From NCBI GenBank assembly GCA_037446815.1, contig JBBIHX010000003.1, positions 291 through 64,290 on the forward strand: a stretch of DNA of 64,000 nt, in the 5' to 3' direction. The notes below the pieces were generated by a model. The model was not told where the DNA came from and did no database searches. It saw only the letters and a list, made by a program, of their open reading frames with translations. Positions within the stretch are counted from its first letter, which is position 1. Every line of letters starts with the position of its first letter. Below are positions 34,135-56,271 of this stretch, one piece after another. Source of the DNA: Caldilineae bacterium (GTDB lineage: Bacteria; Chloroflexota; Anaerolineae; DTLA01). A program made the position numbers and the translations under genes.

Positions 34135-34183
34135 GAGCACATGCCCCTATCCGCGCAATCCGCGCAATCCGTGGATGCGGCGG

Positions 34184-35641
<1,458 letters not shown>

Positions 35642-35724
35642 TCAGGGCCGTTAGCCTTTGGCCGATAGCCTTTAGCCGCTGGCCAAAGGCTGACCGCTGA
35701 TCGCTGACGGCTGTTTGCGCGTTG

Positions 35725-36166: not shown

Positions 36167-36195
36167 TTGACGGAAAATGAGACTAGGGTTATAAT
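36167..36195 (+). promoter_or_regulatory. Sigma70-type promoter (TTGACG-17 nt-TATAAT) of the signalling supercluster
   Basis: TTGACG at 36167-36172 and TATAAT at 36190-36195, 67 nt upstream of ATG 36262. Confidence 0.6.
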
Positions 36196-37074: not shown

Positions 37075-37091
37075 CTCGGAGGAACTGCGGA

Positions 37092-37628: not shown

Positions 37629-37643
37629 CGAGGGGCCAACAGG

Positions 37644-38435: not shown

Positions 38436-38483
38436 CGGCAAGCACGGCGCTATTCGACGGTTCATCCTTTTCTCGGAGGACTC

Positions 38484-39206: not shown

Positions 39207-39409
39207 GCGGGGGAGAGCACGGGCAGATTGCGGCGCGGGATTCGGGGCCGCCCGCCGACGCGGCTCCGAGCCGTCCCGCTAGAAGCGCATCCTAGGCCGG
39301 GCGAGGTACCCCCCAGCCCGCCGGTCGGCCGAGGGCTTCCCGTGCCTCGCCCGGACGTGCGGGGAGGGGCGCGCAACACGGTGGGCGATCCGGAGGGTGC
39401 CAGAGGGCC

Positions 39410-40660
39410 ATGATACGGATAGTCATTCGGGATCGGACCAAGATACCCCCGTTCAACGAGCCTGCGCGCGATTTGCGCGTGCTCAATAAGCCCCTGTGGC
39501 TGCACCAGCGCGACGTGCTGGCGCGGTACTGCCTCACCGAGGTGGAAGTGGAAGTCGGCGACCCGCTGCCGCCCATCCGTGAAGAATGCCTGGTCTATCG
39601 CGACAACCTCTTCTTTGACGAGGACTTCATCCACGAGTTCTTGCGGTTGGCCAGGGCGCGGCGAAGGCCCTGTCAGGTGGCCTTCTCCCCCGACGACAAG
39701 GCCATCGTCGTTCACGCCCTCCCGCTCCAGGACAACATCCGCCTGCAAGGCGACGTGTATGTGGCCGACCTGTGGTACTACCCCAGCGGCCCCACCGACG
39801 AACCGCCGGAGCCGGTGGTGGTGGACACTATGGCGCAGGAAATCGGGTACTACCACATCCCCACCTACATGGCCTCGGAGAAGGGGGAACTGGTCTTCTG
39901 GGTTCCCTTGCGGCCGTTCCTGGCGATAGAGAACTGGGTGCATGTGTTCATGGCCAATTCGCCCTTTGGCATCTTCAGCATGGGGGCGAAGATGGAGCAC
40001 GAGGTGGCGCGCTTTTCCAAGGCGGCCCGCGTGCTGTTGCGTTCGCTGCTGGAGCGGCGGCAGTTCCTGTCGTCGTCGCGGATGATCCGCGTGGGGCGCA
40101 ACGTGCAGATAGACCCCACGGCCATCATCCAGGGGCCGGCCATCATCGGCGACAACACCACCATCGGCCCGGGCGCGGTGGTTACCAACTCCATCATCGG
40201 CAGCAACGTCAACGTCATGCAGGGATGCCAGGTGATGCTCAGCGTCGTCAGCGATGGGTGCTATCTCCCCTTCCGCGCGGCGCTGTTCATGACGACGCTC
40301 ATGGAGAATTCCATGGTGGCGCAGAATGCCACGCTGCAACTGTGCGTCGTCGGGCGGCATTCGTTTGTGGGGGCCAACACGGTCTTCACGGATTTCAATC
40401 TGCTGGGCAAGCCGCTGCGCACTATGCACAAAGGCCAGCCGCAGCCTGTGGGCTTGCCCGTTCTGGGCGGGTGCGTCGGACACAACTGTCGCATCGGCGC
40501 GGGGATGGTCATCTATCCGGCGCGCACCATTGAGTCGGATACGGTTCTCATCCGCGCCGAGGGCCGCGGCGTCATTTCGGACAACGTGCTGTTTGAGCAA
40601 AGCGACCACGTGCGGTTAGGAGAGGAGAGCCTGCATCCGCAGAAGTACACAAGGGGGTAG
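39410..40660 (+). CDS. Left-handed beta-helix (hexapeptide-repeat) protein with a unique N-terminal domain
   Basis: The C-terminal half has imperfect hexapeptide repeats (IIGDNTTIGPGAVVTNSIIGSNVNVMQGCQV..., VVGRHSFVGANTVF, CVGHNCRIGAGMVI). The N-terminal about 200 aa lacks a GxGTRL nucleotidyltransferase motif. The stop is 1 nt before the next start. Confidence 0.6.
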   Translation: MIRIVIRDRTKIPPFNEPARDLRVLNKPLWLHQRDVLARYCLTEVEVEVGDPLPPIREECLVYRDNLFFDEDFIHEFLRLARARRRPCQVAFSPDDKAIVVHALPLQDNIRLQGDVYVADLWYYPSGPTDEPPEPVVVDTMAQEIGYYHIPTYMASEKGELVFWVPLRPFLAIENWVHVFMANSPFGIFSMGAKMEHEVARFSKAARVLLRSLLERRQFLSSSRMIRVGRNVQIDPTAIIQGPAIIGDNTTIGPGAVVTNSIIGSNVNVMQGCQVMLSVVSDGCYLPFRAALFMTTLMENSMVAQNATLQLCVVGRHSFVGANTVFTDFNLLGKPLRTMHKGQPQPVGLPVLGGCVGHNCRIGAGMVIYPARTIESDTVLIRAEGRGVISDNVLFEQSDHVRLGEESLHPQKYTRG

Positions 40661-40661
40661 T

Positions 40662-41714
40662 ATGGAACGTTTCGGCTTTATCCTACACCCTTTGGATGTG
40701 CGGAGAGATGTGGCAAAGCGCTTCGCGGTTCTCAGCATCTTGCCGCTACGGTGGCTGGATTTCCTGTCGGGATATTTCCCGCCGGTGTACCTGTCGCACG
40801 TTACTGGCATTCGGTCTGCACTGGGTGATGAGGCGGAGGGTTGGCTTGTGGCCTGCCCGCTCACGCCCAGGGCGATGACCCGGTTCCCGCTGAAGCGCGT
40901 CTATCGGCAGATCATCCGCGCCGGGCAACTGGCCGAGCGGCTCGGCGCGCGCATCATTGGGCTGGGCGCGCTGACCTCAGCCGTCGGCGACGCGGGGGAG
41001 ACGGTGGCGCAGGGCCTGAAGGCAGCGGTAACGACGGGCAACAGTTACACGGTGGGGGTTACCTGCGGCGCCGTGCGCGCCATTGCCCGCACCCTGGGCA
41101 AGCCGCTGGAGGAGTTGCGCGTGGCGGTGCTGGGCGGGACGGGGTCCATCGGCAGCGCGTGTGCGCGCCTGCTGTGCCGCAACGTGGGAGAGGTGCGCAT
41201 CGTGGGCCGCGACCCTGCAGCGGTGGAACGCCTGGTGCGTTCGCTGGAACCGGTGGCGTATCGGGAGGTATCCGGCACGACCGACCTGATGGCCCTACGG
41301 GACGCGGACGTCATCGTCAGCGCTACCAACTCGGCAGGGCCACTCATCCGTCCGGAGCACTTGCGCCCGGGCGTCGCGGTGTACGACCTGGCGTTGCCTC
41401 CCGACGTGTCGGCGGCGGTGCGCCAAATGGGGCTGGATGTGCAGGTCTATTCCGGCGGCGATGTCCTGGTGCCGGGGAAGCCGAACTTCGGGTTTGACTT
41501 CGGGCTACCGCCCGGCCATGCCTACGCCTGCATGGCCGAGACGATAGCCTTGGCCTTGGAGGGTCGGTACGAGAACTACACGCTGGGGCGAAGTATCGCC
41601 CCAGAGCAGGTGCTGAAGATTTGCGTCATCGCCGAGCGGCATGGGTTCCGCCCCGCGCCTTTGCGCGCCAGGGGCAGGACCGTGGAAGTGCCCTCGTGCG
41701 TGGAAGTGGTATAA
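40662..41714 (+). CDS. Acyl-ACP-reductase (AAR)-like NAD(P)-binding protein
   Basis: By-eye alignment to cyanobacterial AAR throughout: FGFILHPL~[16 protein letters not shown]~[32 protein letters not shown]~[36 protein letters not shown]~[20 protein letters not shown]~VRHGFQP. The catalytic Cys of the AAR 'EHC' motif is not obvious here. Confidence 0.65.
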   Translation: [350 protein letters not shown]

Positions 41715-41762
41715 TAGAAGCCGGCAGGTGCGCTTGTACGACAGGTGTTAGGGAGGATAGAT

Positions 41763-42674
41763 ATGCCGAAGGACAGGATTCTAATCGTAGAAGATGACCG
41801 CGACATCTCCAGTCTGCTCGCCTTCTACTTTGAGTCCCAGGGCTATGAGATTCTGGCGACCACGCACGGCAACGAGGCCCTGGAGATTTCGCGGCGCAAG
41901 TTGCCCAACCTGGTGATTCTGGATATCAAACTTCCGGACATTGACGGCTACGAGGTATGCCGCCGCCTGCGCACCAACCTGCGCACCAGCCACATCCCTA
42001 TCATCTTCCTAACCCAGAAGGACGAGCGGGCCGACCGCATCGCCGGCCTGCAACTGGGCGCCGACGACTACATCACCAAGCCCTTTGACATGGAGGAACT
42101 CCACCTGCGGGTGAAGAACGCCCTGCGCCGAGCCAGTTACGAGAACCTCACGAACCCGGTTACGGGCCTCCCCAGCGGGCGGCTGATAGAGGAGCAGTTG
42201 AAATCCCTCATCCAGCGCAACAACTGGACGGTGCTGTATATCGGCGTGTGCGGGTTGCGCGCGTTCAACGACTTGTACGGCTTCGTCGCGGCGGACGACG
42301 TGCTCCGCTTTGCGGCGATGGTGTTGGGCGAGACGATTGACGCCCTGGAAGGCGGCCAGGACTTCGTGGGCCACATCGGCGGCGGCGACTTCATCATCAT
42401 CACCACGCCCGACCGCGAGGCGGCCCTGCGCGAACGCATCACGGCGCGGTTCAACAGCGAGGTCAAGAGTTTCTACAACTTCAAAGACCGCGAGCGCGGC
42501 TACCTTCTCATCAAGGACGAGACGGGGCGAGAGAAAAAGGTGGCGCTCATGACGCTGGCCGTGGGAACGGTGCACGGAGGGGCCGGGCGGTTCAGCGACA
42601 TCCGCGAAATCACCGAGGTGGCCTCCGACGCGCGCCGCGCCGCCGCCATCGCCCAGTGCGGCGAGATCGGCTAG
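41763..42674 (+). CDS. Response regulator: REC domain + degenerate GGDEF-like domain (GGDF)
   Basis: REC: ILIVEDDRDI...LDIKLPDIDGYEV...DDYITKPF. C-terminal: NPVTGLPSGR...HIGGGDFIIIT, GGDEF-like with a degenerate GG(D/E)EF motif. GGGAGG RBS before ATG 41763. Confidence 0.75.
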   Translation: MPKDRILIVEDDRDISSLLAFYFESQGYEILATTHGNEALEISRRKLPNLVILDIKLPDIDGYEVCRRLRTNLRTSHIPIIFLTQKDERADRIAGLQLGADDYITKPFDMEELHLRVKNALRRASYENLTNPVTGLPSGRLIEEQLKSLIQRNNWTVLYIGVCGLRAFNDLYGFVAADDVLRFAAMVLGETIDALEGGQDFVGHIGGGDFIIITTPDREAALRERITARFNSEVKSFYNFKDRERGYLLIKDETGREKKVALMTLAVGTVHGGAGRFSDIREITEVASDARRAAAIAQCGEIG

Positions 42675-42709
42675 CGGCCCTCCGGAATCTCTAGAGGCGG
42701 GGTTAGGGT

Positions 42710-45700
42710 ATGAACGTTTCCAAGGGAAGATTGAGAGCGCAGCAGGTTGTCGCCTGGCTGTACTGGTTCGGATGGCTGTACGTGCTGATTTCCTCCCTCA
42801 CCAATCAAGGACGGGTCGGCCTGTGGGTCTTGGCTCTCCTGGCCGCGCAGTGGCTGGTGCTCCGCGTGGGCGCGGTTCGGGCTTTTCGCGCTCGTCATGC
42901 TCTGCTTGGACTTCTTGCCGTTGAGGTGCCATTTTCCATCGCGGTCTTCTATTTGACGGGCGGGCGTACCAGCCCCGCGTCCATCCTGGCCTACTTCCTC
43001 GTCGGCCTGGGCGCAGCGCACTTGCCGCTCGCGGCGCTGGCGGTGTACATCCTCGGCATCACCGTGGCGTTCCTGCTGCCTCTCGTGCCCCCGCTGTGGC
43101 CCGCGGGCGAACCCATCCGCTGGCAATACCTGGTAACGGGGCTGTTCAGTTACTACGCGCTGGGGTACATCGTCCGATACCTGGTGCAGGCCGAGGAGCG
43201 GGAGCGGGCCGAGCACCTGGAAAGCCAGGAGGTGCTGGCCGAGTCGCGCAGGCGCGTGAACGAACTCACCGCCCTACAGCGCATCAGCCGCCAACTCGGC
43301 AGCACGCTGGAACTGGACAAACTGCTGCCCATGATTGTGGAAGAGACGGTGGCCGCGACGCCGGCAACTCATGGCGCGCTGCTGCTGGTGGATGAGAACA
43401 CGGGCAAGTTGGCGCTGCGCGCGTCCTACGGGTACACGCCCGACCAGATCATGGCCTACAAGGAGTTGGACTTTGAGTCCACCAAGACCATCGTCGGGCG
43501 GGTGCGGGAGACGGGGCAACCGGCGCTCATTGCCGATGTGTCCCAGGACGCGGACTACTTCGCCCTCGTGCCGGAGACACGCTCCGAGGTGGCGGTGCCC
43601 ATCCGAATGGGCAACGTGGTGGTGGGCGTGCTGAACCTGGAGGCACGCACGCCCAATGCGTTCGCCGATGCCGATGTCCATTTCTTGGAGGCCATCGCCG
43701 ACCAGGCGGCGCTGGCGCTGGCCAACGCGCAATTGTACACGGCGACCGACAGGACCCTGGCGCGGCGCGTGGAAGAACTCGGCGCGATGAGCGAGATCAC
43801 GCGCGAGTTGGCCAGCACGCTGGACCTGCACCGCGTCCTGGACTTGCTCATCGGTCGCGCCATCCAGGCTACCGGCGCGACCTCGGCCCTGGCGGGCCTG
43901 TACGACCCCGAGACCGATACCCTGGAACTTCTCGCGCACCGGAATTATCCCACGCTCATCACCGCCGAGGGCACCGTGGAGCGGCCCGCGACGGGCGGCA
44001 TCACCCAGCGCGTGGTGCGAACCGGCAGGCCTGCCCTCGTGCCCGATGTTACCAAAGACCCCGACTACGTGCCGGCCCTGCCCGACACGCGCTCGCAGTT
44101 GACGGTGCCCATCCGCTACGAGAACCAGGTGCTGGGCGTGCTGAACTTGGAGAGCAACCGTCCGGCAGCGTTCACCCACGAGAACCTGGCGTTTGTGGAG
44201 AACCTGGCAAACCAGGCGGCGGTCGCGGTCCGAAACGCCCGCCTGTACGACCAGGAACTCCGCCGATTGCAGGAAATCTCGCTGCTGAACGAGGTGGGCC
44301 AGGCGATTTCGGGCAGCCTGGATTTGGAGTCCACCCTACAGACCATTCTGGAGAGCGCGCGCCGCCTGCTGGACTACTACGTGGCCGAAGTGAACCTGTG
44401 GGACGAAGACCAGGGCGTGATGGTAACGTGCGCGGCGGCGGGCGAATCGGGCTACCTGACCCAGGTGGGCACGACCTACACGCCGGAGCAGGGATACACC
44501 GGCTGGATCACCCGCAACCAGAAGCCTCTGTTCATCCCCGACACGCGGGCGCGGGCCGATGTGCAGCCGCGCGTGAGCCTGGAAGACACGCCCTACCGTT
44601 CCTACATGGGCGTGCCGCTGGTGAAGGGGCAGAAATTGGTGGGCACGCTGGAGATGGCCGCGGACCGCCCCAATGCGTTCTCGCAGCAGGACCTGCGCCT
44701 GCTCCAGGCCATCGCGGGCCAGGCCGCCGTCGCCATTGAGAACGCGCGCCTGTACGAGGAGACCCAGTCCAGGGTGGACGAGATGGCCGGCCTGTTCCAG
44801 ATTGCCGGCATCGTTACCTCCACGCTGGACATGGACCAGATGCTGCAGGAGACGCTGCGCAAGACCGCGGAGTTGCTCAAGGCCGAGAAGATGGCGCTCC
44901 TCCTGTACAACGAGACGACAGAGCGGCTGGAAGCGCGGGCCAGCGCCGTGGTGGGACTCCCGCCCGAGGAAGCGGAGATGCTCTCTATTGATGCACAGAC
45001 GCCCGATTTCGCCTACGGCGTCTTTCGCACGGGCCGACCGTTCCGTTCGTCGGATGCGCCCCACGACAAGCGCATCATCCCCGCCTACCGCCCGCTGATT
45101 GAGAAGTACGGGTTCCGTACGGTGCTGTCGGTGCCGCTGCGGACGCAAGACGTCATTCTGGGCGAACTGCACGCGGGGAACAAGCGCGATGGGGCCTTCT
45201 CCACCGAGGATGAGCGGCTTCTGGCGACGGTGGCCGCCCAACTGGCGGCGGGTATCCAGAATCTGCGGCTGTACCAGCGCACCGACGAGCAACTGCGGCA
45301 CCAGATTGACCAGATGACGGCCCTCCAGCGCATCACGCGCGAATTGAACGCCACGCTGGAACTGGAGCGCATCCTGGAGGTCGTGATCACCGAGGCCATT
45401 CGCGCCACCCGCGCCTCGCATGGCAACATCGCCCTGCTGGATGTGGAGAGTGGCACGTTCCACATCGCGGCGTACAAGGGGTACTCGGCGGAAGAAGAGG
45501 CTATCCTCCAGAAGATGACCCTGGGCAGCGGGAACAGCATCGCCGAGGATGCCATCCGCGCCGCCAAGTCCATCATCGTGGCCGACGCCCGCAAGGAGAC
45601 CCGCCCCGTCTGCATTCGCAAGGGCACCCTGTCCGCCGTGGCCGTGCCCATCCTGTACGAGGGGGCGGTCGCCGGCGTCATCAGCCTGCGGGCGATGGAG

Positions 45701-48700
45701 GTGCAGGCCTTTGACGAGGACACGGTGAGGTTCCTGGAGGCGCTGGCCAACCAGGCGGGCGTGGCCATCGGCAACGCATGGCGGTACCAGGAGCAGGTGC
45801 GCCTGGGGGCCAGCCTCAGCCGCCGCGCCGAGCAACTGCGCAGCCTCTTGGAGATCGGCAACGCGCTCCGCATGAACCTGTCGCTGGAAGAGGTGCTGGA
45901 CCAGATTGTCTACGCCATCCCCGAAACGACGGGGTTCAACCTGGCCCTGTTGAGCGTCGTGGAGGGTGATCCGCCGTACCTGCGGCGCGTGGCGGCGGCA
46001 GGGCTGCCCATCGCCGTCTTTGAGGAGATGCGCCGCGTGCGGCAGCCTTTGGAGCGGTTCACCCGCATCATGCGCGACGAGTACCGCATCAGCCAGTCCT
46101 ATTTCTTCCCGCACCAGAAGGCGCACGAGTGGCAAGAGGGGTTGCACGTATACACGCCGCCGGCGCCCGATGAGGAGTGGGAGCAAGGCCGCTGGCACCC
46201 CGAAGACATGCTCATCGTCCCGCTCCATTCGTCCTCCGGCGAGATTCTGGGCCTGCTGAGCGTGGATGAGCCGCGCGATGGTCGGGTGCCCACCCGCGCC
46301 GTGGTGGAGGCGCTGGAGATCTTCGCCAACCAGGCGGCCACGGCCATTGAGAACGCGCAACTGTACGAGAAGCAGTTGGCCCAGAGCCAACTGATGGCGC
46401 GCCGCGCCGAGCAACTCAGCAACCTGCTCAACTTCGGCAACGCCCTGAAGGCCGAGATGAGCCTGGAGCAGGTGTGCCGCGAGATCGCCGATGCCGCACA
46501 CACGCAGATGGGCTATCGCCTCGTGGCGTTGAACCTGATTGATGGCGACGATCCGTCGCTGGTGCGTGTGGTGGCGACGGCGGGGGTGGACGCGGAGACC
46601 ACAGCCGCGCCCTTCCCGCGTTCCGCGCTGGAGAGCCTGCTGGACGAGCGGTATCGTATCAGCCAGTCGTACCTTATCACGGGGGACGGCAAGGGCGCGC
46701 TGGAGGGGAGCGGGGCGCCGGTGTACGTGCCCGATTTGGGCGAGCGCGGGCCCGACGAGTGGCAACCCACCGACGCCCTCATCGTCCCGCTGACCGGCAG
46801 CAAGGGGCACATCGGCTACCTGTCGCTGGATGACCCCGTGAGCCGCCGCCGACCAGAGCCCGAAGACATCGCCGCGCTGGAGGTGTTCGCGAACCAGGCG
46901 GCCATCGGCATTGAGAACGCCATGCTGTACGAGAACGTTATCTCGCGCATGCGCGAAATCTCGGCCATGTACGACGTGAGCCGAGGGTTGGTGTCCACCC
47001 TGGACCCGGAGGAGATGCTGGAGGACGTGTTGAGCGCGCTCCGACAGTCGGCCGGGTACGACAACTGCGCGTTCCTTCTGCTGGACCCGGTTGCCGACGA
47101 CCTGGTGGTGCGCGCCGCCGTGGGGTACATGGAAGACATCAAGGGCCTGCGCATCCAGGTGGGGCGCGAGGGCATCACCGGCTGGGTCGCCGAGAACAAG
47201 CAGCCCCTCGTGGTGCCCGACGTTACGCAGGACGCCCGATACATCCAGAAGGACTCGCAGACCCGCTCGGAGATCGCCGTGCCCATGATGGTGGGCAATC
47301 GGCTCATCGGCGTGCTGGATGCCCAGAGCAGCGAATTGGACGCCTTCGGCGAGCGGGACTTGCGCATCCTGTCGGCGGTGGCAGCGCAGACGGCCGTGGC
47401 CACTGAGAACAGCCGCCTGTATGAGGAGACGCGCCGCCGCGCCACGCAGTTGGAGGCCACCAGCGAGGTGGGGCGACGCATCGCGTCCATCCTGGGCCTG
47501 GATGAACTCCTCTCCGAAGTGGTGGAACTGGTGCACGAGACCTTCAACTACGACCACGTGCACGTGTTCCTGATTGACCCGGATACGCAAGAGGCGGTGT
47601 ACCGCGCGGGCAACGGCTCGGTGGGCCGCGCCATTCGCGAAGAGGGGCTTCGGCTGAAAGTGGGCCAGGAAGGGATGATTGGCCATGCCGCCAGCACCCG
47701 CCAGCCCCTCATCGCCAACGACGTTGCCAAAGACCCCTTCTACGTGCCGCACCCGCTGCTGGCCGACACGCGCTCGGAATGCACCGTCCCGCTGGTCATC
47801 GGAGACCGCGTCATCGGCGTTCTGGACGTGCAGAGCCACGAGTTGGACGCTTTTGGCGACGACGACCTGTTCCTGCTCCAGACCTTCGGCGACCAGTTGG
47901 CCGTGGCCATTGAGAACGCGCGCCTGTTTGAGGAGTCGGAGCGGCGGATCCGTTCCCTGGCGGCGCTGAACCGCATGGGCCAGACAATCAGCTCCACGCT
48001 GGACCTGACGGCGCTCCTGGACGAGGCCTATCGCCAGATTTCGCAGGTCATTGACGCCTCCAATTTCTACATCGCCTTCTACGACGAGGAGCGCGACGAG
48101 GTATCCTTCCCGCTGGCCATTGAGGAGGGTGAGCGCGTAACGTGGCAAAGCCGCCGCGGGACGCGCAGCCTGACCGAGCATATCATCCGCACGCGGCAGC
48201 CGCTATTCCTGCCGGAGAACGTGGTGGAGGCGGCCACCGAAATCCTGGGCAACCCGCCGGTGGGCCGGGCCGCCCTGTCGTGGATGGGCGTGCCGATGAT
48301 TGTGGGCGAGAAGGTCATCGGCGTCATCGCCGTGCAGAGTTATGCCAAGGCTCGCGCCTATACGGAAGAGGACCTCAACGTGCTGCAAACCATCGCGGCG
48401 CAAGTGGCCACGGCGGTGCAGAACGCCCGCCTGTTCCAGGAGACGCGCCAGAGCGCCGAGGAGATGCGCCTGCTGTACGACCTGGGTGTGGCCCTCAGCG
48501 AGACGCTGGAACTGGACCGCGTGCTGACGCTCATCGCCGAGAGCGCGCTGCAACTGACCCACACGCAAATCGCCACGCTGTACATCAAGGGCCAGACGGG
48601 CGATGAACTGACCTTCAAGGTTGTCTCGGACCCGCCGGAGCTGGCCCAGGGGATTGAAGTACACAAGCCGCGCGCCAAGGGCCTGACGGCGCAGATTCTC

Positions 48701-51475
48701 AAATCGGGCAAGCCGCTTATCCTGGACGACATTGCGCAGGACGAGCGCGTCAGCCCGGTTATCAAAGAGATGGGCATCCAGTCCATGATGGGCGTGCCGG
48801 TGCAGGTGGAGGGGCAGACCATCGGGGTGCTGTTTGCAGGCTCTAGGGAGTCCCACCACTTCACCGATAGGGACGTGTCGCTGGTCAACTTCCTGGTGAA
48901 CCAGGCGTCGCGCGCCATCCGCAACGCCCAGTTGTACGAGGAAATCACGCGCCTGAACCTGGAACTGGAAGAGCGCGTGGAGCAGCGCACGCGCGAACTG
49001 GCCAAGGCCAACGAGGAACTCACCATTGAGCGCGACCGCACCGAGGCGCTGTACCGCATCGCGCGCGAGTTGAGCCAGACGCTGGACCTGAACCGCGTGA
49101 TGAGCCGCGCCCTGCAATTGCTGAAAGAGTCCATCGGCATGAAGCGGGGCTCCATCCTCCTGCTGGATCAGCAGACCGGCAAACTGGTGCACCGCGCGTC
49201 GCTGACGCGGGGCACGCTGGAGCAGGGCGAGGCATCGCGGGCGTTCAGCGTGGGCGTTGGGCTGGCCGGGTGGGTGCTCCAGCACCGCCAGGCGGCCATC
49301 GTCCCCGACGTAACGAAGGACGAGCGGTGGCTCGCGACGGCGGGCGAGGAGACCGTGCGGTCGGCGCTGTCGGTGCCGCTACAGGCGGGCGAGGACATCC
49401 TTGGCGTGCTGACCCTGGCCGACCCGCGCCCCGACTACTTCAGCGAGGCCCACCTGAAGATGGTAACCGCCGCGGCCACACAGATCGCCACCGCCATCGG
49501 CAACGCCGAACTGTATCGGCTGATTCAGGAGCAAGCGGACCGCCTGGGCGACATGCTGCGCATGCAGCAGACCGAAGCGTCCAAGACCCGCGCCATCCTG
49601 GAGGGCATCGCCGACGGCGTGGTGGTTACCGACACCGACGGGCGCATCATCCTGTTCAACGACGCCGCCGAGCGCATCCTAGGCGTGCCGCGCAATGTCG
49701 TCATGAACGAGAACGTGCATGCCCTGCCGGCTACCCTGTCGGCGGGGGCCGAGATGGCGGCGCGTGGCCTGGCCGCCGTGAGCCGCTGGGTCGGCGTCGC
49801 GACCCGTCAGCGGCCCCAGATGGAAGAGCGCTTCGCCGTGGGCAACAAGGTGGCCAGCGTGCGCGTGGCCCCCGTGATGATGGGCGACGAACTGCTGGGC
49901 ACGGTGGCCCTGTTCCGCGACATCTCCAAGGAGGTGGAGGCCGAGCGCGTCAAGAACGAGTTCATCTCCACCGTGTCCCACGAGTTGCGCACGCCCATGA
50001 CCTCCATCAAGGGTTACACCGACCTGCTGTTCATGCAGGCCGCGGGGCCCATCACCGACGCCCAGCGCAAGTTCCTGACCGTCATCAAGTCCAACGCCGA
50101 CCGCCTGGCCACGCTGGTAAATGACCTGTTGGACATCTCCCGTATTGAGACCGGCCGCATCCGCCTTGACCGCCAGCCTACCGACGCCGCCAAGGTGATC
50201 CAGGACGTGGTAACGGCGCTCAGCAAGCAGGCGGACGAGAAGCAACTGACGGTTACCACCCGGATCAAGTCGCCGCTGCCGCCGGTGTACGCCGACCGCG
50301 ACCGCCTGACCCAGATTCTGACCAACCTGGTGGACAACGCGTGCCGGTATACGCCTGCGGGCGGGAAGATCACCGTGTCGGCGCGGCGCGTTTCCGACAA
50401 GGTGCAGATTGACGTAACCGACACCGGCATCGGCATCTCGCCCGAAGACCAGAAGAAGGTCTTTGACCGCTTCTATCGGGCCGACCATCCCGTCGTCCAA
50501 GAGACCGGCGGCACCGGCCTGGGCCTGGCCATCGTCAAGTCGTTCGTGGAGATGCACGGTGGCACCATCTGGCTGAAGAGCGAGTTGGGCAAGGGTTCAA
50601 CGTTCAGTTTCACGATGCCCATCGCCGTGTTTGACCAGCCGCTCCCGCCGCGCGAGGAAGTAACGGAGGAGGCCGAACCCATCGGCGCGGGCAAGCGCAT
50701 CCTGGTGGTGGAAGACGAGCCGGACATCGCCAACCTGGTGGCCCATCACCTGCGCGAGGAAGGGTATGAGGTGAGCACGTGCGGGCGCGGCGATGAGGTC
50801 ATGGACATCGCCCTGCGCGAAAAGCCGCACCTCATCACCCTGGACATCCGCCTGCCGGGCAAGGACGGGTTTGAGGTGCTCGGCGAGTTGAAGGCCCACC
50901 CGGAAACGTCGGAAATTCCCGTCGTCATCCTGTCCATCGTGCCCGACCCCGACCGAGCCTACCGATTGGGCGCGGTGGACTACCTGGGCAAGCCGGTGGA
51001 CGAGAAGCGCCTTGTCAACACGATACACTCCATCCTGTTCGCCCACGACCTGGTGCTCATCTGCGACGACAATGAGGACACGCAGAAACTGCTGCGCGAG
51101 GTCCTGGAGCGCAACGGATTCGTGGCCCGGACTGTGTCGGACGGACGCCAGGTGCTGGCCGTCGCTGAGAAGGAGCGCCCCGGCCTCATCCTGCTGGACC
51201 TCAAGATGCCCGGCCTGGACGGGTATTCGGTGTTGGAGCAACTGAAGCAGAATCCGAACACCGCCGACATCCCGGTGATTGTGATGACGGCCAGCATTGC
51301 CGACGACAAGGTGAAGCGCGACCGCGCGCTGGCGCTTGGAGCCGCCAAGTTCATGACCAAGCCCTTCTCCATCCCCGATTTGGTGGAGGAGGTGCGCAAG
51401 GCGCTGGAGGCCAGGGCCAAGGCCAACGGCAAGGCGCAACGGGCCGACCGCGAGGCCGCCGCGAGCGCCGAGTAA
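42710..51475 (+). CDS. Giant membrane-anchored hybrid sensor histidine kinase (2921 aa): about 5 TM - 12 tandem GAF - PAS - HisKA - HATPase_c - REC - REC
   Basis: N-terminal hydrophobic region of about 170 aa. Twelve GAF units, each ending in an (E/Q)NA(R/Q)L(Y/F) helix and sharing a VPDVT(K/Q)D...TRSE.(A/T)VP...(V/I)(L/I)GVL core. PAS (ILEGIADGVVVTDTDGRIILFN), H-box (STVSHELRTPMTSIKGY), HATPase (LVDNACRYT...GTGLGLAIVK), then two REC domains (KRILVVEDEPDI...; LVLICDDNEDTQ...). Confidence 0.85.
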   Translation: MNVSKGRLRAQQVVAWLYWFGWLYVLISSLTNQGRVGLWVLALLAAQWLVLRVGAVRAFRARHALLGLLAVEVPFSIAVFYLTGGRTSPASILAYFLVGLGAAHLPLAALAVYILGITVAFLLPLVPPLWPAGEPIRWQYLVTGLFSYYALGYIVRYLVQAEERERAEHLESQEVLAESRRRVNELTALQRISRQLGSTLELDKLLPMIVEETVAATPATHGALLLVDENTGKLALRASYGYTPDQIMAYKELDFESTKTIVGRVRETGQPALIADVSQDADYFALVPETRSEVAVPIRMGNVVVGVLNLEARTPNAFADADVHFLEAIADQAALALANAQLYTATDRTLARRVEELGAMSEITRELASTLDLHRVLDLLIGRAIQATGATSALAGLYDPETDTLELLAHRNYPTLITAEGTVERPATGGITQRVVRTGRPALVPDVTKDPDYVPALPDTRSQLTVPIRYENQVLGVLNLESNRPAAFTHENLAFVENLANQAAVAVRNARLYDQELRRLQEISLLNEVGQAISGSLDLESTLQTILESARRLLDYYVAEVNLWDEDQGVMVTCAAAGESGYLTQVGTTYTPEQGYTGWITRNQKPLFIPDTRARADVQPRVSLEDTPYRSYMGVPLVKGQKLVGTLEMAADRPNAFSQQDLRLLQAIAGQAAVAIENARLYEETQSRVDEMAGLFQIAGIVTSTLDMDQMLQETLRKTAELLKAEKMALLLYNETTERLEARASAVVGLPPEEAEMLSIDAQTPDFAYGVFRTGRPFRSSDAPHDKRIIPAYRPLIEKYGFRTVLSVPLRTQDVILGELHAGNKRDGAFSTEDERLLATVAAQLAAGIQNLRLYQRTDEQLRHQIDQMTALQRITRELNATLELERILEVVITEAIRATRASHGNIALLDVESGTFHIAAYKGYSAEEEAILQKMTLGSGNSIAEDAIRAAKSIIVADARKETRPVCIRKGTLSAVAVPILYEGAVAGVISLRAMEVQAFDEDTVRFLEALANQAGVAIGNAWRYQEQVRLGASLSRRAEQLRSLLEIGNALRMNLSLEEVLDQIVYAIPETTGFNLALLSVVEGDPPYLRRVAAAGLPIAVFEEMRRVRQPLERFTRIMRDEYRISQSYFFPHQKAHEWQEGLHVYTPPAPDEEWEQGRWHPEDMLIVPLHSSSGEILGLLSVDEPRDGRVPTRAVVEALEIFANQAATAIENAQLYEKQLAQSQLMARRAEQLSNLLNFGNALKAEMSLEQVCREIADAAHTQMGYRLVALNLIDGDDPSLVRVVATAGVDAETTAAPFPRSALESLLDERYRISQSYLITGDGKGALEGSGAPVYVPDLGERGPDEWQPTDALIVPLTGSKGHIGYLSLDDPVSRRRPEPEDIAALEVFANQAAIGIENAMLYENVISRMREISAMYDVSRGLVSTLDPEEMLEDVLSALRQSAGYDNCAFLLLDPVADDLVVRAAVGYMEDIKGLRIQVGREGITGWVAENKQPLVVPDVTQDARYIQKDSQTRSEIAVPMMVGNRLIGVLDAQSSELDAFGERDLRILSAVAAQTAVATENSRLYEETRRRATQLEATSEVGRRIASILGLDELLSEVVELVHETFNYDHVHVFLIDPDTQEAVYRAGNGSVGRAIREEGLRLKVGQEGMIGHAASTRQPLIANDVAKDPFYVPHPLLADTRSECTVPLVIGDRVIGVLDVQSHELDAFGDDDLFLLQTFGDQLAVAIENARLFEESERRIRSLAALNRMGQTISSTLDLTALLDEAYRQISQVIDASNFYIAFYDEERDEVSFPLAIEEGERVTWQSRRGTRSLTEHIIRTRQPLFLPENVVEAATEILGNPPVGRAALSWMGVPMIVGEKVIGVIAVQSYAKARAYTEEDLNVLQTIAAQVATAVQNARLFQETRQSAEEMRLLYDLGVALSETLELDRVLTLIAESALQLTHTQIATLYIKGQTGDELTFKVVSDPPELAQGIEVHKPRAKGLTAQILKSGKPLILDDIAQDERVSPVIKEMGIQSMMGVPVQVEGQTIGVLFAGSRESHHFTDRDVSLVNFLVNQASRAIRNAQLYEEITRLNLELEERVEQRTRELAKANEELTIERDRTEALYRIARELSQTLDLNRVMSRALQLLKESIGMKRGSILLLDQQTGKLVHRASLTRGTLEQGEASRAFSVGVGLAGWVLQHRQAAIVPDVTKDERWLATAGEETVRSALSVPLQAGEDILGVLTLADPRPDYFSEAHLKMVTAAATQIATAIGNAELYRLIQEQADRLGDMLRMQQTEASKTRAILEGIADGVVVTDTDGRIILFNDAAERILGVPRNVVMNENVHALPATLSAGAEMAARGLAAVSRWVGVATRQRPQMEERFAVGNKVASVRVAPVMMGDELLGTVALFRDISKEVEAERVKNEFISTVSHELRTPMTSIKGYTDLLFMQAAGPITDAQRKFLTVIKSNADRLATLVNDLLDISRIETGRIRLDRQPTDAAKVIQDVVTALSKQADEKQLTVTTRIKSPLPPVYADRDRLTQILTNLVDNACRYTPAGGKITVSARRVSDKVQIDVTDTGIGISPEDQKKVFDRFYRADHPVVQETGGTGLGLAIVKSFVEMHGGTIWLKSELGKGSTFSFTMPIAVFDQPLPPREEVTEEAEPIGAGKRILVVEDEPDIANLVAHHLREEGYEVSTCGRGDEVMDIALREKPHLITLDIRLPGKDGFEVLGELKAHPETSEIPVVILSIVPDPDRAYRLGAVDYLGKPVDEKRLVNTIHSILFAHDLVLICDDNEDTQKLLREVLERNGFVARTVSDGRQVLAVAEKERPGLILLDLKMPGLDGYSVLEQLKQNPNTADIPVIVMTASIADDKVKRDRALALGAAKFMTKPFSIPDLVEEVRKALEARAKANGKAQRADREAAASAE

Positions 51476-51505
51476 AAACTTCTTCCCGGGGACTGGGTTA
51501 GGATT

Positions 51506-51883
51506 ATGCCAAAGATCGTTGTGGCGGAAGACGAGCGGGACATCTTGGAGTTGATTCGCTTTGTCTTGGAGTTCAACGGGTTTGAGGTCGTGACGGCGAG
51601 CAACGGGGAGGAAGCCGTCCAACAGGCGCTGGCGACCATGCCCGACTTGGTGCTGATGGACGTGCGCATGCCGCGCATGACCGGGCACCAGGCGTGCCAG
51701 GCGCTGAAAGCCAACCCCAAGACCCAAAATATCCCGGTGGTGTTCCTTTCCGCGCGCGGGCAGGAGGCCGACATCAAGCAGGGGCTTTCGCTCGGGGCGG
51801 CGGACTACATCCTCAAGCCCTTCTCGCCGGAGGAGTTGCCCAATCGGCTGCGGAACGTGTTGGCCGCGGCGGGAAGCAAATGA
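51506..51883 (+). CDS. Single-domain CheY-like response regulator
   Basis: A 125-aa protein: KIVVAEDERDI...DLVLMDVRMPRMTG...ADYILKPF. Located 30 nt after the kinase. Confidence 0.8.
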   Translation: MPKIVVAEDERDILELIRFVLEFNGFEVVTASNGEEAVQQALATMPDLVLMDVRMPRMTGHQACQALKANPKTQNIPVVFLSARGQEADIKQGLSLGAADYILKPFSPEELPNRLRNVLAAAGSK

Positions 51884-51907
51884 CATGCAGGCGGTCGGGG
51901 AGCGGCG

Positions 51908-52687
51908 ATGAGCGTCATCCTCATTGAGGAGCGAATCATCCACTACGAGACGCTGGGGCGAGGCAAGCCGCTGATCTTTCTGCACGGCTGGCTCGGCTCG
52001 TGGCGCTACTGGATGCACGCCATGGAGGCGCTCTCGGAGAACTACCGTACCCACGCTTTTGACCTGTGGGGATACGGCGACTCGGACAAGCAGGGCGGGC
52101 GCCATGATTTGGATTCCTACCTGCGCCTGCTGGAAGCCTTCATGGATCAGATGGGTATCCTGAAGGCGCCGCTGGTGGCGCACAGTCTGGGGGGCATCCT
52201 CGCCGTGCACTTCGCGGCGAAGCACCCGGATCGCGTGCCTCGGCTCGCGCTGGTGAGCACGCCCCTCACCGACGCGGGCCTCAATGCCGGCGCTATCCTC
52301 GGCAAGTCGGCCCTCGGCAAGTTCCAGCAGAAGCGGCAGATTACGCACGACATCGTGTGGCAGGACATTGCCCGCATCGCCCCGAAGGCCATTGACGAAA
52401 GCCTGGCCAGCCTGAAGAAGTTTGACCTTCGGCCCCTGCTCCAGCAGATGCAGATGCCCTCGCTCATCGTGTACGGGCGCAAGGACGGGCTGGTGGATCC
52501 CGGGCAGGCGGCCGGCCTGGAGGGCAACAACCCCCGGATGCGCGTCCTCACCATGCCCGACTCTCGGCACTTCCCCATGTTGGACGAGGTGAGCCGCTTC
52601 AATCGGCTGCTCATGGATTTCCTGGAAGTCGGGGAAGACTTGACCGAGTTGGACCTGAAGACGGAGTGGCGCCGCCGCACCCATTGA
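51908..52687 (+). CDS. Alpha/beta-hydrolase fold protein (paralog B)
   Basis: LHGWLGSWRYW, nucleophile elbow AHSLGG. Paralog of 37644..38435. Confidence 0.75.
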   Translation: MSVILIEERIIHYETLGRGKPLIFLHGWLGSWRYWMHAMEALSENYRTHAFDLWGYGDSDKQGGRHDLDSYLRLLEAFMDQMGILKAPLVAHSLGGILAVHFAAKHPDRVPRLALVSTPLTDAGLNAGAILGKSALGKFQQKRQITHDIVWQDIARIAPKAIDESLASLKKFDLRPLLQQMQMPSLIVYGRKDGLVDPGQAAGLEGNNPRMRVLTMPDSRHFPMLDEVSRFNRLLMDFLEVGEDLTELDLKTEWRRRTH

Positions 52688-52690
52688 CGG

Positions 52691-52840
52691 GATTCGGTTC
52701 CAGAGTCTGTTGTTAGCCGTCATTGCGAGGGCACGCAGTGCCCGAAGCAATCTCCGGGGCGTGGGATTGCTTCGCTTCGCTCGCAATGACACACGAGGAG
52801 GGTGCGCCTGCAATTCACCAACACAAGATGAAACCGAGTC
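52691..52840 (+). mobile_element. MITE (family A), 150 bp, with 12-nt terminal inverted repeats and an apparent 8-9-bp target-site duplication
   Basis: TIRs are GATTCGGTTCCA...TGAAACCGAGTC. The element is flanked on both sides by (C)ATTGACGG (52682-52690 and 52840-52848). It is inserted directly after the hydrolase TGA stop. The internal long hairpin is GTCATTGCGAGGGC...GCTCGCAATGACAC. Confidence 0.7.
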
Positions 52841-52885
52841 ATTGACGGCGGCGCGGCAACCATTACCACACGGAGGCCCTACCCT

Positions 52886-53827
52886 ATGCGCGTTCTCATC
52901 ACAGGCGGCGCCGGATTCATCGGCGCGGCGCTGGCCAATCGCTTGGTGGCCGAGGGACACCACGTGCGCGTGCTGGACGACCTGAGCGCGGGCGACCCGG
53001 CGCGACTGGACCGGCGCGTGGTGTTCACCCGCGGCGACGTGCGCGACGTTCCCAAACTCTGGACGCTGCTCCAGGGCATCTCGTGCGTGTACCACTTGGC
53101 GGCGCGCGTGTCCGTCCCCGAGTCGGTCCTCTACCCGCGCGAGTACAACGACGTGAACGTGGGCGGCACCGTCGCGGTGATGCAAGCGGCCCGCGATGCC
53201 GGCGTGGGGCGCGTGGTGTTCGCCTCGTCGGGGGCCGTGTACGGCGATCAGGCCACCCAGCCAGTCTCGGAGACGGCCTGGCCGCACCCCCGTTCCCCCT
53301 ATGCCGTCAGCAAACTGGCGTCGGAACTGTACGTAAATACCCTGGGCGAACTGTACGGCATTGAAACCGTGAGCCTGCGGATATTCAACGCCTACGGCGC
53401 GGGCCAGTTCGTCCCGGCAGCGCACGCGCCGGTCATTCCCTTCTTCCTCAAGCAGGCGCTGTCGGGCGGTTCGGTCATCGTGTTCGGCACGGGCCAACAG
53501 ACCCGCGACTTCGTGTACATAGACGACGTGGTGGACGCGCTGGTGGCCGCGTCGGAGGCAAGCGAGGTCAACCGCCAGGTCATCAACGTCGGCTCGGGGC
53601 AGGAGACCAGCGTCCGCGCGCTGGTAGACCTCATCGCCGAGGCCATCGGGCGCGAGGTGCATTCGCTGCACAGCCAGGCCGATACGGGCGGCGTGTCGCG
53701 GCTGGTGGCCGACCTGACGCGGGCGCGGGCGCTGCTGGGCTATGCGCCCAAGGTGGACGTGCGGGCGGGCCTGCGGTTGATGCTTCAGCACGACCCCTAT
53801 CTCCGCGACCTGATGGGCCGCGCCTGA
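52886..53827 (+). CDS. NAD-dependent epimerase/dehydratase (UDP-hexose 4-epimerase-like SDR)
   Basis: N-terminal Rossmann motif VLITGGAGFIGAALANRL and the extended-SDR YxxxK (YAVSK). GGAGG RBS. Confidence 0.8.
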   Translation: MRVLITGGAGFIGAALANRLVAEGHHVRVLDDLSAGDPARLDRRVVFTRGDVRDVPKLWTLLQGISCVYHLAARVSVPESVLYPREYNDVNVGGTVAVMQAARDAGVGRVVFASSGAVYGDQATQPVSETAWPHPRSPYAVSKLASELYVNTLGELYGIETVSLRIFNAYGAGQFVPAAHAPVIPFFLKQALSGGSVIVFGTGQQTRDFVYIDDVVDALVAASEASEVNRQVINVGSGQETSVRALVDLIAEAIGREVHSLHSQADTGGVSRLVADLTRARALLGYAPKVDVRAGLRLMLQHDPYLRDLMGRA

Positions 53828-53922: not shown

Positions 53923-56271
53923 ATGCGCTTGGTGTGGGTCGCCATCGCCTGGACTGTCGGCATCTACGTGGCGAAACAGGCCAACGTTCCGCCCCTCGTC
54001 TGGCTGGCGGGCTTCGTGGCGGTGCTGGTGGCCGCCATCCTGGCGCGGAAGACGCGCGTCGGGCTGGCGCTGCTGGCCGCTGCCTTTCTTCTGCTCGGCG
54101 CGTGGCGCTACGCCGCGAGCCTCCCCGTCATAGACGATGCCCATGTGGCGTGGTACAACGGGCGCGGCGAGGTAACCCTTGTCGGCGTGGTGCACGAAGC
54201 GCCCGAGCCGCGGGGAACGCGCTGGCGCGTCCGCATCGCCGCCCGCGAGATCACCCACGCCTACGGCCATGCGCCCGTGGACGGCTTGGTGCTGGCGACC
54301 CTCCCCGCGTATCCGGTTGTCCACGAAGGCGATGTCGTGCGCCTGCACGGGGCGCTAGCCGAGCCGCCGGTCTGGGAGGATTTCTCGTACCGCGACTACC
54401 TGGCCCGCGAGGGCATCTTCTCCCTGATGAACATGCCGTCGGTGGAGGTGCTGGCGGGTTCAAGCGGGCGGGGTCTGGGCCATGCCCTTGCCGCGCTGCG
54501 CGCGCGGGGCGAAGCGGTCATCGCGGCGCTGATTCCCAACCCCGAGGCGGCGCTCCTGACGGGCATCCTGCTGGGGCGCGAGGGTGGGATTTCCGCGGAC
54601 GTGATGGCCGCCTTCCGCACGACGAGCACGGCGCACATCATCGCCATCTCGGGGTTCAACATCACCGTCATCGCGGGCGCGCTCCTGAAGATGCTCACGC
54701 GGACGCTTGGGCGCAGGTGGGCGGTGGCGATCACGATTCCCGCCGTGGCCCTATACGCCGTGCTGGTCGGCGCCGATCCGCCGGTCGTTCGCGCCGCCAT
54801 CATGGGGTGCATCGCGCTGGTGGCGCTCTTGCTGGGGCGGCGCAATGATGCTCTCAACGCGCTGGCGCTCTCGGCCCTGCTGATGACGGCAGTCCGGCCC
54901 CAGGCGATTTGGGATGTGGGGTTCCAGTTGAGTTTTGCGGCCACGCTGGGGATGATTCTCTACGCGGAGCCGCTCCATCGGCGGGTGGGGGCGTTTCTGT
55001 CGGCGCGCATCCCGGCGGCGTGGGCCAAGGTTGTCGTGGGCTGGTTCGGCGACGCGCTGGCGGCGACCCTGGCCGCGCAGGCGCTCACGCTGCCCCTGAC
55101 GGTGGCCTATTTCCACAACCTGTCGCCCATCAGCATCGTCGCCAACTTGTTCATCGTCCCCGTGCAGCCGCAGATCATGACGTGGGGCGGCGTGGCGCTG
55201 CTCTTGGGCCTCATCTGGCTGCCGCTGGGGATGCCCCTGGGGTGGGCCGCGTGGCTGTTCCTCGCCTACACCATCCGCGCCGCCGAGGCGTTGGCGGCGT
55301 TGCCCGGGGCCAGCCTGGAGGTCGCGCGCGTGCCGTGGCCGATGGTGGTGGGATACTACGCGGTCGCGGCGGGGCTGACCTTCGGCTCCAGGCGCGTGCG
55401 GCGGTGGTTGGGGCCGGCGGCGCGGCGCTGGGCGAAGGTCGTGCGGCGTTGGCGGTGGGAGGGCGCGCTGGCCGTGGTGGCGGCGCTGGTGTGGGTTGCC
55501 GGGCTGCAGATGCCCGACGGGCGCTTGCACGTGCACTTCGTCAACGTGGGCGAAGGGGATGCCGTGCTCATCCGCACGCCCAAGGGGAGCGCCGTGCTCA
55601 TTGACGGCGGGAGCGACCCGGCCCGCCTGTTGAGCGAGGTGGGGCGGCGCCTGCCGTTCTGGCAGCGGAGCCTGGCGCTGGTCTTCCTCACCCACCCACA
55701 CTCGGACCACGCGGGCGGGCTCATCGGCATCCTGGAGCGGTACAGCGTCGGCGCGTTTGTGGACGCGCGGGCAGGCACGTCGCCCGAGTACAAGGCCTGC
55801 GTCGCTGCCGCCCAGGCCCGCGACATTCCCCGCATTCAGGCCGTGCCCGGCCAGCGGTTCGTCGTGGATGGCGACGTGGTTTTGGAGGTGCTGTATCCCT
55901 CGCCCGAAACCCCCTGCCGCTCCGAAAACGAGTGCTCTATGGTCCTCCGTCTCGCCATGGGCCGCGCGTCGTTTCTATTCGCGGGCGACCTGGAGGACGA
56001 AGGGCAGGTGCTGTTCATGAACGAGCGGGATGTGCCCCAGGCGCTGGTGCTGAAGGTGCCGCACCACGGGGGCGAGAAGGCCCTGTACCCGTCGTTCCTC
56101 GCCGCCGTCGCGCCGCGGGTGGCCGTCATCCAGGGAGGCCCTCGCGCCGCCGCCGACCCTCACCCCGTAACGTTGCAGCGGCTGGAGGCCGCCGGCGCAA
56201 CCGTGTGGCAGACCCGCCGCAAGGGTTCACTGGAGGCCGTTACCGACGGCCAGCGCTACTGGGTGCGGTAG
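53923..56271 (+). CDS. comEC: DNA internalization-related competence protein ComEC/Rec2 (with C-terminal metallo-beta-lactamase domain)
   Basis: A 782-aa protein with N-terminal TM helices, a competence core with many TM helices, and a C-terminal MBL motif (VNVGEGDAVLIRTPKGSAVLIDGG...THPHSDHAGGL...HHG). Confidence 0.85.
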   Translation: MRLVWVAIAWTVGIYVAKQANVPPLVWLAGFVAVLVAAILARKTRVGLALLAAAFLLLGAWRYAASLPVIDDAHVAWYNGRGEVTLVGVVHEAPEPRGTRWRVRIAAREITHAYGHAPVDGLVLATLPAYPVVHEGDVVRLHGALAEPPVWEDFSYRDYLAREGIFSLMNMPSVEVLAGSSGRGLGHALAALRARGEAVIAALIPNPEAALLTGILLGREGGISADVMAAFRTTSTAHIIAISGFNITVIAGALLKMLTRTLGRRWAVAITIPAVALYAVLVGADPPVVRAAIMGCIALVALLLGRRNDALNALALSALLMTAVRPQAIWDVGFQLSFAATLGMILYAEPLHRRVGAFLSARIPAAWAKVVVGWFGDALAATLAAQALTLPLTVAYFHNLSPISIVANLFIVPVQPQIMTWGGVALLLGLIWLPLGMPLGWAAWLFLAYTIRAAEALAALPGASLEVARVPWPMVVGYYAVAAGLTFGSRRVRRWLGPAARRWAKVVRRWRWEGALAVVAALVWVAGLQMPDGRLHVHFVNVGEGDAVLIRTPKGSAVLIDGGSDPARLLSEVGRRLPFWQRSLALVFLTHPHSDHAGGLIGILERYSVGAFVDARAGTSPEYKACVAAAQARDIPRIQAVPGQRFVVDGDVVLEVLYPSPETPCRSENECSMVLRLAMGRASFLFAGDLEDEGQVLFMNERDVPQALVLKVPHHGGEKALYPSFLAAVAPRVAVIQGGPRAAADPHPVTLQRLEAAGATVWQTRRKGSLEAVTDGQRYWVR

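Follow-up and report, generated by a model that had tools for sequence, protein, structure and literature searches.

We analyzed a 64,000-nucleotide (nt) stretch of DNA from Caldilineae bacterium (assembly GCA_037446815.1, contig JBBIHX010000003.1, positions 291 to 64,290 of the forward strand), hereafter the window, with coordinates counted from its first letter and features on the + strand unless marked (-). At 42710–51475 (+) lies the complete gene of a poly-GAF hybrid histidine kinase, a single open reading frame (ORF) of 2921 amino acids (aa) whose translation has no internal stop. An initial annotation made from the sequence had described this ORF as a membrane module followed by 12 GAF domains, PAS, HisKA, HATPase and two receivers, and that architecture is borne out by the ORF list, the translation and Pfam.

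The 12 GAF units form the bulk of the protein. Pfam returned 12 separate stretches with each GAF model (GAF_2 at E 2e-210, GAF at 8e-194, GAF_3 at 5e-139), as many as had been annotated; whole-protein scores for PF01590, PF13185 and PF13492 were 635–689 bits, against cut-offs of 22–29. A self-search with one unit placed the 12 units at aa 185–2277 (43262–49540), close to the span of about 43260–49430 first assigned to the array, and the consensus that had been quoted for them (VPDVTKD, TRSE, GVL, NARLYEE) is seen in the unit alignment. The self-search delimits G1 (aa 185–350, 43262–43759), G2 (aa 356–520, 43775–44269), G3 (aa 521–690, 44270–44779), G5 (aa 867–1032, 45308–45805), G8 (aa 1416–1579, 46955–47446) and G12 (aa 2110–2277, 49037–49540). 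It also delimits G4 (aa 691–863, 44780–45298), G7 (aa 1234–1415, 46409–46954), G9 (aa 1580–1748, 47447–47953), G10 (aa 1749–1917, 47954–48460) and G11 (aa 1918–2083, 48461–48958). G6 (aa 1041–1227, 45830–46390) stands apart as a divergent type: it carries a lid insertion some 25 residues long as well as the motifs YRISQSYFF and WHPEDMLIVPL. Between G11 and G12 runs a long coiled-coil linker of the signaling-helix (S-helix) type (48959–49036).

The N-terminal membrane module (aa 1–165, 42710–43204) has short loops only. A Kyte-Doolittle scan gave five strong hydrophobic segments within aa 13–128, in line with the roughly five transmembrane segments initially annotated, and a weaker sixth at 138–159, hence five to six transmembrane segments. 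Positively charged residues that lie at the N-terminus, within the loop following segment 2 and past segment 6 would fit a topology of six membrane passes with both ends cytoplasmic. No Pfam model matched the module, which is common only to the close orthologs P0002–P0008 (local BLAST and phmmer); a homolog search with the module alone gave zero matches and did not recover even the query protein itself. A linker free of Pro and Gly (aa 166–184, 43205–43261), predicted to be helical, connects the last hydrophobic segment to helix alpha1 of G1.

Downstream of the array come a PAS domain (aa 2292–2410, 49583–49939; Pfam PAS, PAS_4, PAS_7, PAS_8 and PAS_9), the HisKA dimerization and phospho-acceptor domain (aa 2415–2482, 49952–50155; Pfam E 2e-19), with the phospho-acceptor His2424 in the H-box SHELRTP (codon 49979–49981), and the HATPase_c catalytic domain (aa 2529–2638, 50294–50623; Pfam E 6e-34), with its N, G1, F and G2 boxes present (LVDNACRYT, DTGIGI, FDRFYR, GGTGLGL). 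Two Response_reg receivers (REC) follow. Key positions are intact in both the first (50702–51043; EDE, Asp2712 in ITLDIRLPG, S2742, K2761) and the second (51053–51394; DDN, Asp2830 in ILLDLKMPG, T2860, K2884). Judged by its sequence, this hybrid kinase thus carries the full catalytic signatures. None of the named kinase equivalogs of NCBIfam (TorS, BarA, ArcB, PnpS, WalK, NifA-GAF and others) reached its curated cut-off; the best scores were those of NifA (388 bits against 529, for the GAF part only) and PnpS (309 against 400). Two long antisense ORFs overlap the gene, at 44336–48181 (-), of 1281 aa, and at 50597–53791 (-), of 1064 aa, the latter also covering three downstream genes; they have no Pfam match and were taken as shadow ORFs of GC-rich coding DNA rather than as genes.

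Repeats of this kind had been flagged as an assembly hazard, a concern that the data do not sustain. Pairwise comparison of the 12 units, as the initial annotation had proposed, gave 17–43% identity for protein (mean 26%) and 39–58% for codon-aligned DNA. Tandem Repeats Finder reported no array, and the longest direct DNA repeats are 72 nt at 60–82% identity. The identical protein is present in an NCBI-derived collection. Seven ortholog clusters drawn from NCBI, ENA, JGI and Logan assemblies (73–94% identity) have lengths of 2920–2957 aa with 12 units each, and in the two orthologs checked, P0005 and P0008 (73–78% identity), the units are in 1:1 positional correspondence with those of the kinase. 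Three species-representative metagenome-assembled genomes (MAGs), classified as Anaerolineae or Chloroflexota, have 92–93% identical genes in the same gene order. For annotation, very long repetitive ORFs of this kind in Chloroflexota MAGs are real genes, not assembly errors.

Twelve GAF domains in one chain had been called extreme, which does not hold among the homologs. With a hidden Markov model built from the twelve units, we counted 7–19 GAFs in each of the 120 best homologs, 44 of which have more than 12. Scanning 1.84 billion cluster representatives with a profile yielded 293,688 GAF proteins; the best 150 have 7–20 stretches, and among the 142 of these that were new, 64 have at least 12, 44 exceed 12, and two reach 20 (3792 and 3952 aa). 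Matches whose source is named are all from Chloroflexota (Anaerolineae, Chloroflexia, Kouleothrix, Roseiflexaceae and Thermoflexales); these database homologs, from MAGs, share the architecture and show no difference in kind. Orthologs of 92–94% identity are already deposited as 'GAF domain-containing protein' (MDH7489370.1, GAB4404483.1). Literature searches on giant or multi-GAF kinases of Chloroflexi or Anaerolineae turned up no account of such a class, returning only cyanobacteriochrome work and general linker studies. The kinase is one further member of a large poly-GAF class common in Chloroflexota, and the class appears to be undescribed. In one metagenomic contig (L072, 669–18029) the gene of a 3786-aa kinase with 19 GAFs is followed by those of a REC protein, a REC-guanylate cyclase and another GAF protein, which has 4215 aa and extends past the end of the locus; tandem arrangements of poly-GAF genes, and still larger members, can thus occur.

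The closest unit pairs adjoin: G1/G2 (43% protein identity), G6/G7 (42%, G7 being a paralog of G6) and G8/G9 (43%). These pairs are old local duplications. The serial duplication suggested in the initial annotation therefore stands insofar as the closest units are neighbors, but it is ancient, with identities of at most 43% and with most unit types shared by homologs that are 33–38% identical overall. In homologs at that overall identity the order G2-G3-G5-G6-(G9/G10)-G12 is kept, with variable insertions between. Eight unit types recur 28–217 times each across 262 proteins, and each has 5–17 type-specific conserved positions. The G2 type accounts for 43 units in homologs and the G3 type for 95; amplification is most frequent for the G10 type (217 units), and in homolog P0088 17 of the 18 typed units are nearest to G10. 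The G12 type is kept as the last GAF before PAS.

Ratios of nonsynonymous to synonymous substitution (dN/dS), taken against three orthologs at 92–93% identity, are 0.03–0.23 in every unit and about 0.08–0.09 overall; all units are under purifying selection. G9 is lowest among the units (about 0.03), and G6, G8 and G9 are constrained as strongly as the kinase core. The kinase core and receivers are highly conserved. Least constrained are the membrane module (0.13–0.16) and G11, whose 0.14–0.23 is the loosest value for a GAF.

We measured junction spacing from the invariant Asn of NAxLYE in helix alpha5 to the conserved Leu in alpha1 of the next unit. In the kinase the spacings are 32, 28, 28, 32, 35, 35, 28, 28, 28, 28 and 53. 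Across the 120 homologs 98.6% of 1238 junctions fall within the series 28, 32, 35, 39, 42, 46, 49, 53, the commonest being 28 (n = 766), 35 (n = 187), 32 (n = 151) and 53 (n = 89). An independent set of 1277 junctions has 90% in the series, the remainder being mostly 21, 18 or 25 or one residue away from a value of the series. The steps of the series alternate between 4 and 3 and correspond to whole coiled-coil turns; the spacing is quantized. The linkers are nearly without Pro or Gly, with a dominant hydrophobic period of 3.5 residues. The S-helix has been described as a coiled coil of about 40 residues with a central motif of the E-R-T type between two signaling domains (PMC1592074, PMC8199190), and heptad-type periodicity in sensor-kinase linkers has been reviewed (PMC6798134). 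The 53-residue junction between G11 and G12 has the ERT motif (LELEERVEQRTRELAKANEEL), and the corresponding class of 89 junctions shows strong 3.5-residue periodicity.

We modeled G8-G9 with AlphaFold, using 28 GAF-pair sequences (mean pLDDT 86.9); the result has two GAF folds, each with a six-stranded antiparallel sheet, alpha1 and alpha5 on one side and alpha2–alpha4 on the other. In the model one unbroken helix of 45 residues spans model residues 144–188 (aa 1548–1592), and the helix at the C-terminal end continues likewise. For every unit, alpha5 is predicted to pass unbroken into alpha1 of its successor. With Foldseek the best matches to the model were CyaB2 (1ykd), PDE5A (3lfv, TM-score 0.65) and PDE2A (3ibj, 0.65), at E 1e-16 to 1e-15; lower matches were PDE6 and phytochrome GAF-PHY modules. 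Eight of the 17 positions conserved across all unit types are in alpha5. Because these positions lie mainly there, the universal property of the units is the helical connector. The initial annotation had offered two mechanisms, a long rigid rod and a combinatorial small-ligand sensor array; the helical rod gains support from the quantized linkers and the predicted continuous helices.

Ligand signatures were sought in all 12 units. An NK..F...DE motif occurs in G4 alone (GNKRDGAFSTEDE, 45176–45214, aa 823–835); presumably it resembles the NKFDE signature of GAFs that bind cyclic nucleoside monophosphates (cNMPs), a lead rather than a test. In the other 11 units the Asn-Lys pair of the cNMP-binding signature is missing. 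As for a bilin site, aa 185–2277 hold four Cys, in G5, G7, G8 and G9, none of them in a Cys-His context. The 12-unit profile matched the GAFs of PDE5, CyaB2, Nlh1, DevS and PtsP in the PDB at E 1e-28 to 1e-19, and these matches show no preference that names a ligand. A sequence search of the PDB with G6 gave zero matches; a fold search returned generic GAFs only, with a disordered lid insertion in G6. Conserved positions specific to a type are scattered throughout the domain, with a mild excess in beta5-beta6 only, and are not centered on the pocket.

The kinase lies within a conserved run of ten same-strand genes (36262–52687) with intergenic gaps of 1–203 nt. The run begins, by Pfam and NCBIfam matches, with a PATAN/DUF4388 gene (36262–37074), a small GTPase of the Ras/Arf/ATP_bind_1 type (37092–37628), an alpha/beta hydrolase (37644–38435), a V4R protein (38484–39206) and a hexapeptide LbH protein (39410–40660). 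The next product is a 350-aa NAD(P)-binding reductase-like protein (40662–41714; Pfam Shikimate_DH), which aligns end to end with the N-terminal domain of PigE (prodigiosin) at 1.5e-55 and with acyl-ACP reductase at 5e-23, both below the cut-off. The presence of the reductase-like protein, LbH, two hydrolases and V4R hints that the cluster makes or senses a lipid-like small molecule. Immediately ahead of the PATAN gene is a near-consensus promoter-like match of the sigma-70 type (36167–36195, TTGACG-17-TATAAT, 11/12), the best in 36–53 kb; there are two such matches in these 17 kb, a count not above the shuffled expectation. Further upstream, ORFs 33941–35173 (410 aa) and 35315–35668 (117 aa) have no Pfam match.

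Candidate partners flank the kinase. Directly upstream is a response regulator with REC and a degenerate GGDEF domain (41745–42674; Pfam and sequence). Its GGDEF motif reads HIGGGDF, the metal-binding DxD is replaced, and no RxxD I-site was seen upstream of the motif; the domain is degenerate in 4/4 aligned orthologs (GGGDF, GSDDF, IGSDF; DxD lost). Synthesis of cyclic di-GMP (c-di-GMP) is thus unlikely, and the protein is probably a pseudo-enzyme with another output. Directly downstream are a single-domain CheY-like receiver of 125 aa (51506–51883; Pfam) and a conserved alpha/beta hydrolase (51908–52687; Pfam and synteny). Beyond the cluster, a competence protein of the ComEC/Rec2 type (Competence, DUF4131 and metallo-beta-lactamase) is encoded at 53923–56271; the sole RNA gene found in the window is tRNA-Thr(CGT) at 63676–63751 (-).

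Much of this arrangement recurs; the upstream genes from PATAN to the reductase-like protein are conserved in order around homologs whose kinases share only 33–38% identity. The core order V4R, LbH, (reductase-like), REC-GGDEF, poly-GAF kinase is found in loci L069, L070, L073, L074, L075 and L076, where the kinases are only 33–38% identical to the present one, except in L069 (73%), and carry 11, 12, 14 or 15 GAFs. The REC-GGDEF gene is directly upstream of the kinase in seven loci. After the kinase come a REC and a hydrolase or further GAF kinases; the stand-alone REC follows it in L069, L070, L072, L073 and L076. In L074 (14969–19840) and L075 (13217–18220) the kinase is followed by a PDZ-GAF kinase, a REC-GAF-GAF kinase and a further multi-GAF protein, which in L074 also has a STAS domain; in L075 a Roadblock/LC7 gene is upstream of the kinase. 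The Streptomyces-type conservon is a four-gene unit of the CvnA kinase, Roadblock/LC7, DUF742 and a small GTPase; the window has no Roadblock or DUF742 match, and the cluster shares with conservons only the loose association of small GTPase and kinase (PMC4316618). PATAN proteins and MglA-type GTPases are neighbors in Chloroflexi and other phyla, and elsewhere act in polarity and pilus control (PMC4316618; bioRxiv 10.1101/2021.06.11.447907).

We favor, with a probability of about 0.6, the reading that the protein is a dimeric helical-spine kinase and integrates several inputs from the cytoplasm. It would be a parallel homodimer, because HisKA kinases are dimeric and the tandem GAFs of PDE2A, PDE5, PDE6 and CyaB2 dimerize along helices of this kind. 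An unbroken spine of two helices would carry the GAFs, running from the last membrane helix through the S-helix and PAS to His2424 in the dimerization and histidine phosphotransfer (DHp) domain. A ligand or partner bound by one GAF or by several may shift the register or rotation of the spine and so set kinase activity, as may a change in the membrane module, with the PAS domain possibly another input; the array would then be a multi-input integrator and not a passive spacer. The phosphoryl group may pass to the fused receivers (Asp2712, Asp2830), to the flanking regulators (the REC-degenerate GGDEF protein and the CheY-like REC), or to both. PDE2A measures about 15 nm for three domains, and by that analogy the array would be roughly 55–65 nm long. 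From the conserved neighbors, among them the acyl-reductase-like protein and the LbH protein, which is acyltransferase-like, we speculate that the kinase acts on cell polarity, on motility or on the envelope, perhaps with a hydrophobic small molecule taking part.

Several points weigh against this proposal. The parallel-dimer spine, like its length, is drawn by analogy and is not a result. Assignment of a ligand class was not possible, 11 of the 12 units having no NK..F...DE and none a Cys-His bilin site, and the type-specific residues are not enriched in pocket-forming elements. Quantized linkers are equally expected of a purely structural rod. A regular-expression search for an HPt motif in the window's ORFs, a weak test that covers the window only, found none. 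Because the neighboring GGDEF is degenerate, the output would not simply be c-di-GMP synthesis.

One alternative is a passive rod or ruler, in which the GAFs bind nothing and the array is a stiff spacer of fixed length between the membrane and the kinase core and receivers, or a relay from the membrane module or PAS only. The strict quantization of linker lengths, the concentration of all-type positions in alpha5, the lack of a ligand signature and the scatter of type-specific residues would all suit it. Against it, syntenic orthologs have 11, 12, 14 or 15 GAFs, so the length is not fixed. A fixed-length ruler, which several 12-unit homologs of about 2900 aa had suggested, is weakened by those with 11, 14 and 15 units. 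Large divergence has left the unit types and their order in place, and G6, G8 and G9 are constrained like the kinase core, which exceeds what maintenance of a fold asks for; the membrane module, the least conserved region and with short loops only, is a poor candidate for a sole sensor. Because GAF number varies among syntenic orthologs and unit identities are conserved, the passive ruler is the less likely reading, and as a full account we consider it improbable.

We judge equally improbable the combinatorial ligand array of the initial annotation, taken here to mean a separate small-molecule ligand for every one of the twelve GAFs and a kinase that computes on many metabolites. Known GAF ligands are varied (cNMPs, heme, bilins, 2-oxoglutarate and others; PMC8199190), the nearest solved relatives include ligand-binding GAFs, and the low identity of the units, their eight types with conserved residues of their own and the purifying selection on all of them agree with this idea. 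But apart from the NK..F...DE motif of G4 no unit has a recognized ligand signature, the type-specific residues are scattered instead of gathered at the pocket, and amplification of a single type in some homologs, as in P0088, is unlike the addition of ligand diversity. What survives is that each type keeps its own conserved residues. Passive ruler and ligand array are each possible in part.

A docking scaffold, with the array recruiting the PATAN protein, small GTPase, V4R protein and response regulators into a polar or membrane-proximal hub, is very unlikely: the tight linkage of the kinase to the same neighbors in seven loci and the polarity and pilus roles of PATAN and MglA-type proteins elsewhere speak for it, but there is no evidence of direct interaction, and catalysis matters, given that neither the kinase core nor the receivers have lost their key residues and that both are highly conserved. 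An assembly or frameshift artifact, the array being collapsed, expanded or chimeric or two genes being fused in error, was rejected on the repeat, identity and ortholog data given above and has a negligible chance of being right.

The helical-spine kinase can be extended, as a conjecture we hold to be doubtful, to the class as a whole. Chloroflexota poly-GAF kinases might be allosteric 'wires' tens of nanometers long, in which at least 11 register-locked junctions sum position-specific GAF inputs; together with PATAN, the small GTPase, V4R, the reductase-like protein, LbH and the REC-pseudo-GGDEF protein they might form an undescribed system linking a self-made hydrophobic metabolite to polarity or envelope behavior in filamentous Anaerolineae. 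The protein alone is no discovery, being one member of a populous, unstudied family; the part worth following is the class-level regularities, namely quantized junctions, conserved unit order and a conserved gene cluster. A class with 11–19 successive register-locked junctions is a natural test bed for long-distance conformational signaling in sensor kinases, and speaks to the question of whether sensor domains in tandem add, gate or only space. The conserved cluster is a starting point for inputs and outputs in Anaerolineae, which are widespread and hard to culture.

Among known systems, the tandem GAFs of PDE2A, PDE5A, PDE6 and CyaB2 (3ibj, 3lfv, 1ykd) are the best PDB matches both by structure, with the G8-G9 model, and by sequence. 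Like the kinase array they have GAFs joined by one long helix and the NAxLYE end of alpha5. They differ in having two GAFs, which have cGMP or cAMP as ligand and control a phosphodiesterase or cyclase, whereas here twelve GAFs lead to a histidine kinase. Phytochromes and cyanobacteriochromes with multiple GAFs likewise set GAF or GAF-PHY modules on a helical spine leading to HisKA or another output, and in them several GAFs per chain are separate inputs. Their GAFs hold bilin through a conserved Cys, while the present array, from Anaerolineae and not Cyanobacteria, has four Cys and none in such a motif; the likeness is that of the generic GAF fold. To our knowledge, characterized members of these families have far fewer GAFs. 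DosS/DosT (DevS) also place GAFs directly upstream of the kinase core, with a GAF profile match at E of about 1e-19; they differ in having two GAFs, heme in GAF-A, no membrane anchor and no fused receivers. Finally, S-helices and heptad linkers share with the kinase the ERT motif of its 53-residue G11-G12 linker and the coiled-coil periodicity of all its spacings. That principle was described for single sensor-effector junctions, whereas here it extends over eleven successive junctions, and over about 2,500 across the class.

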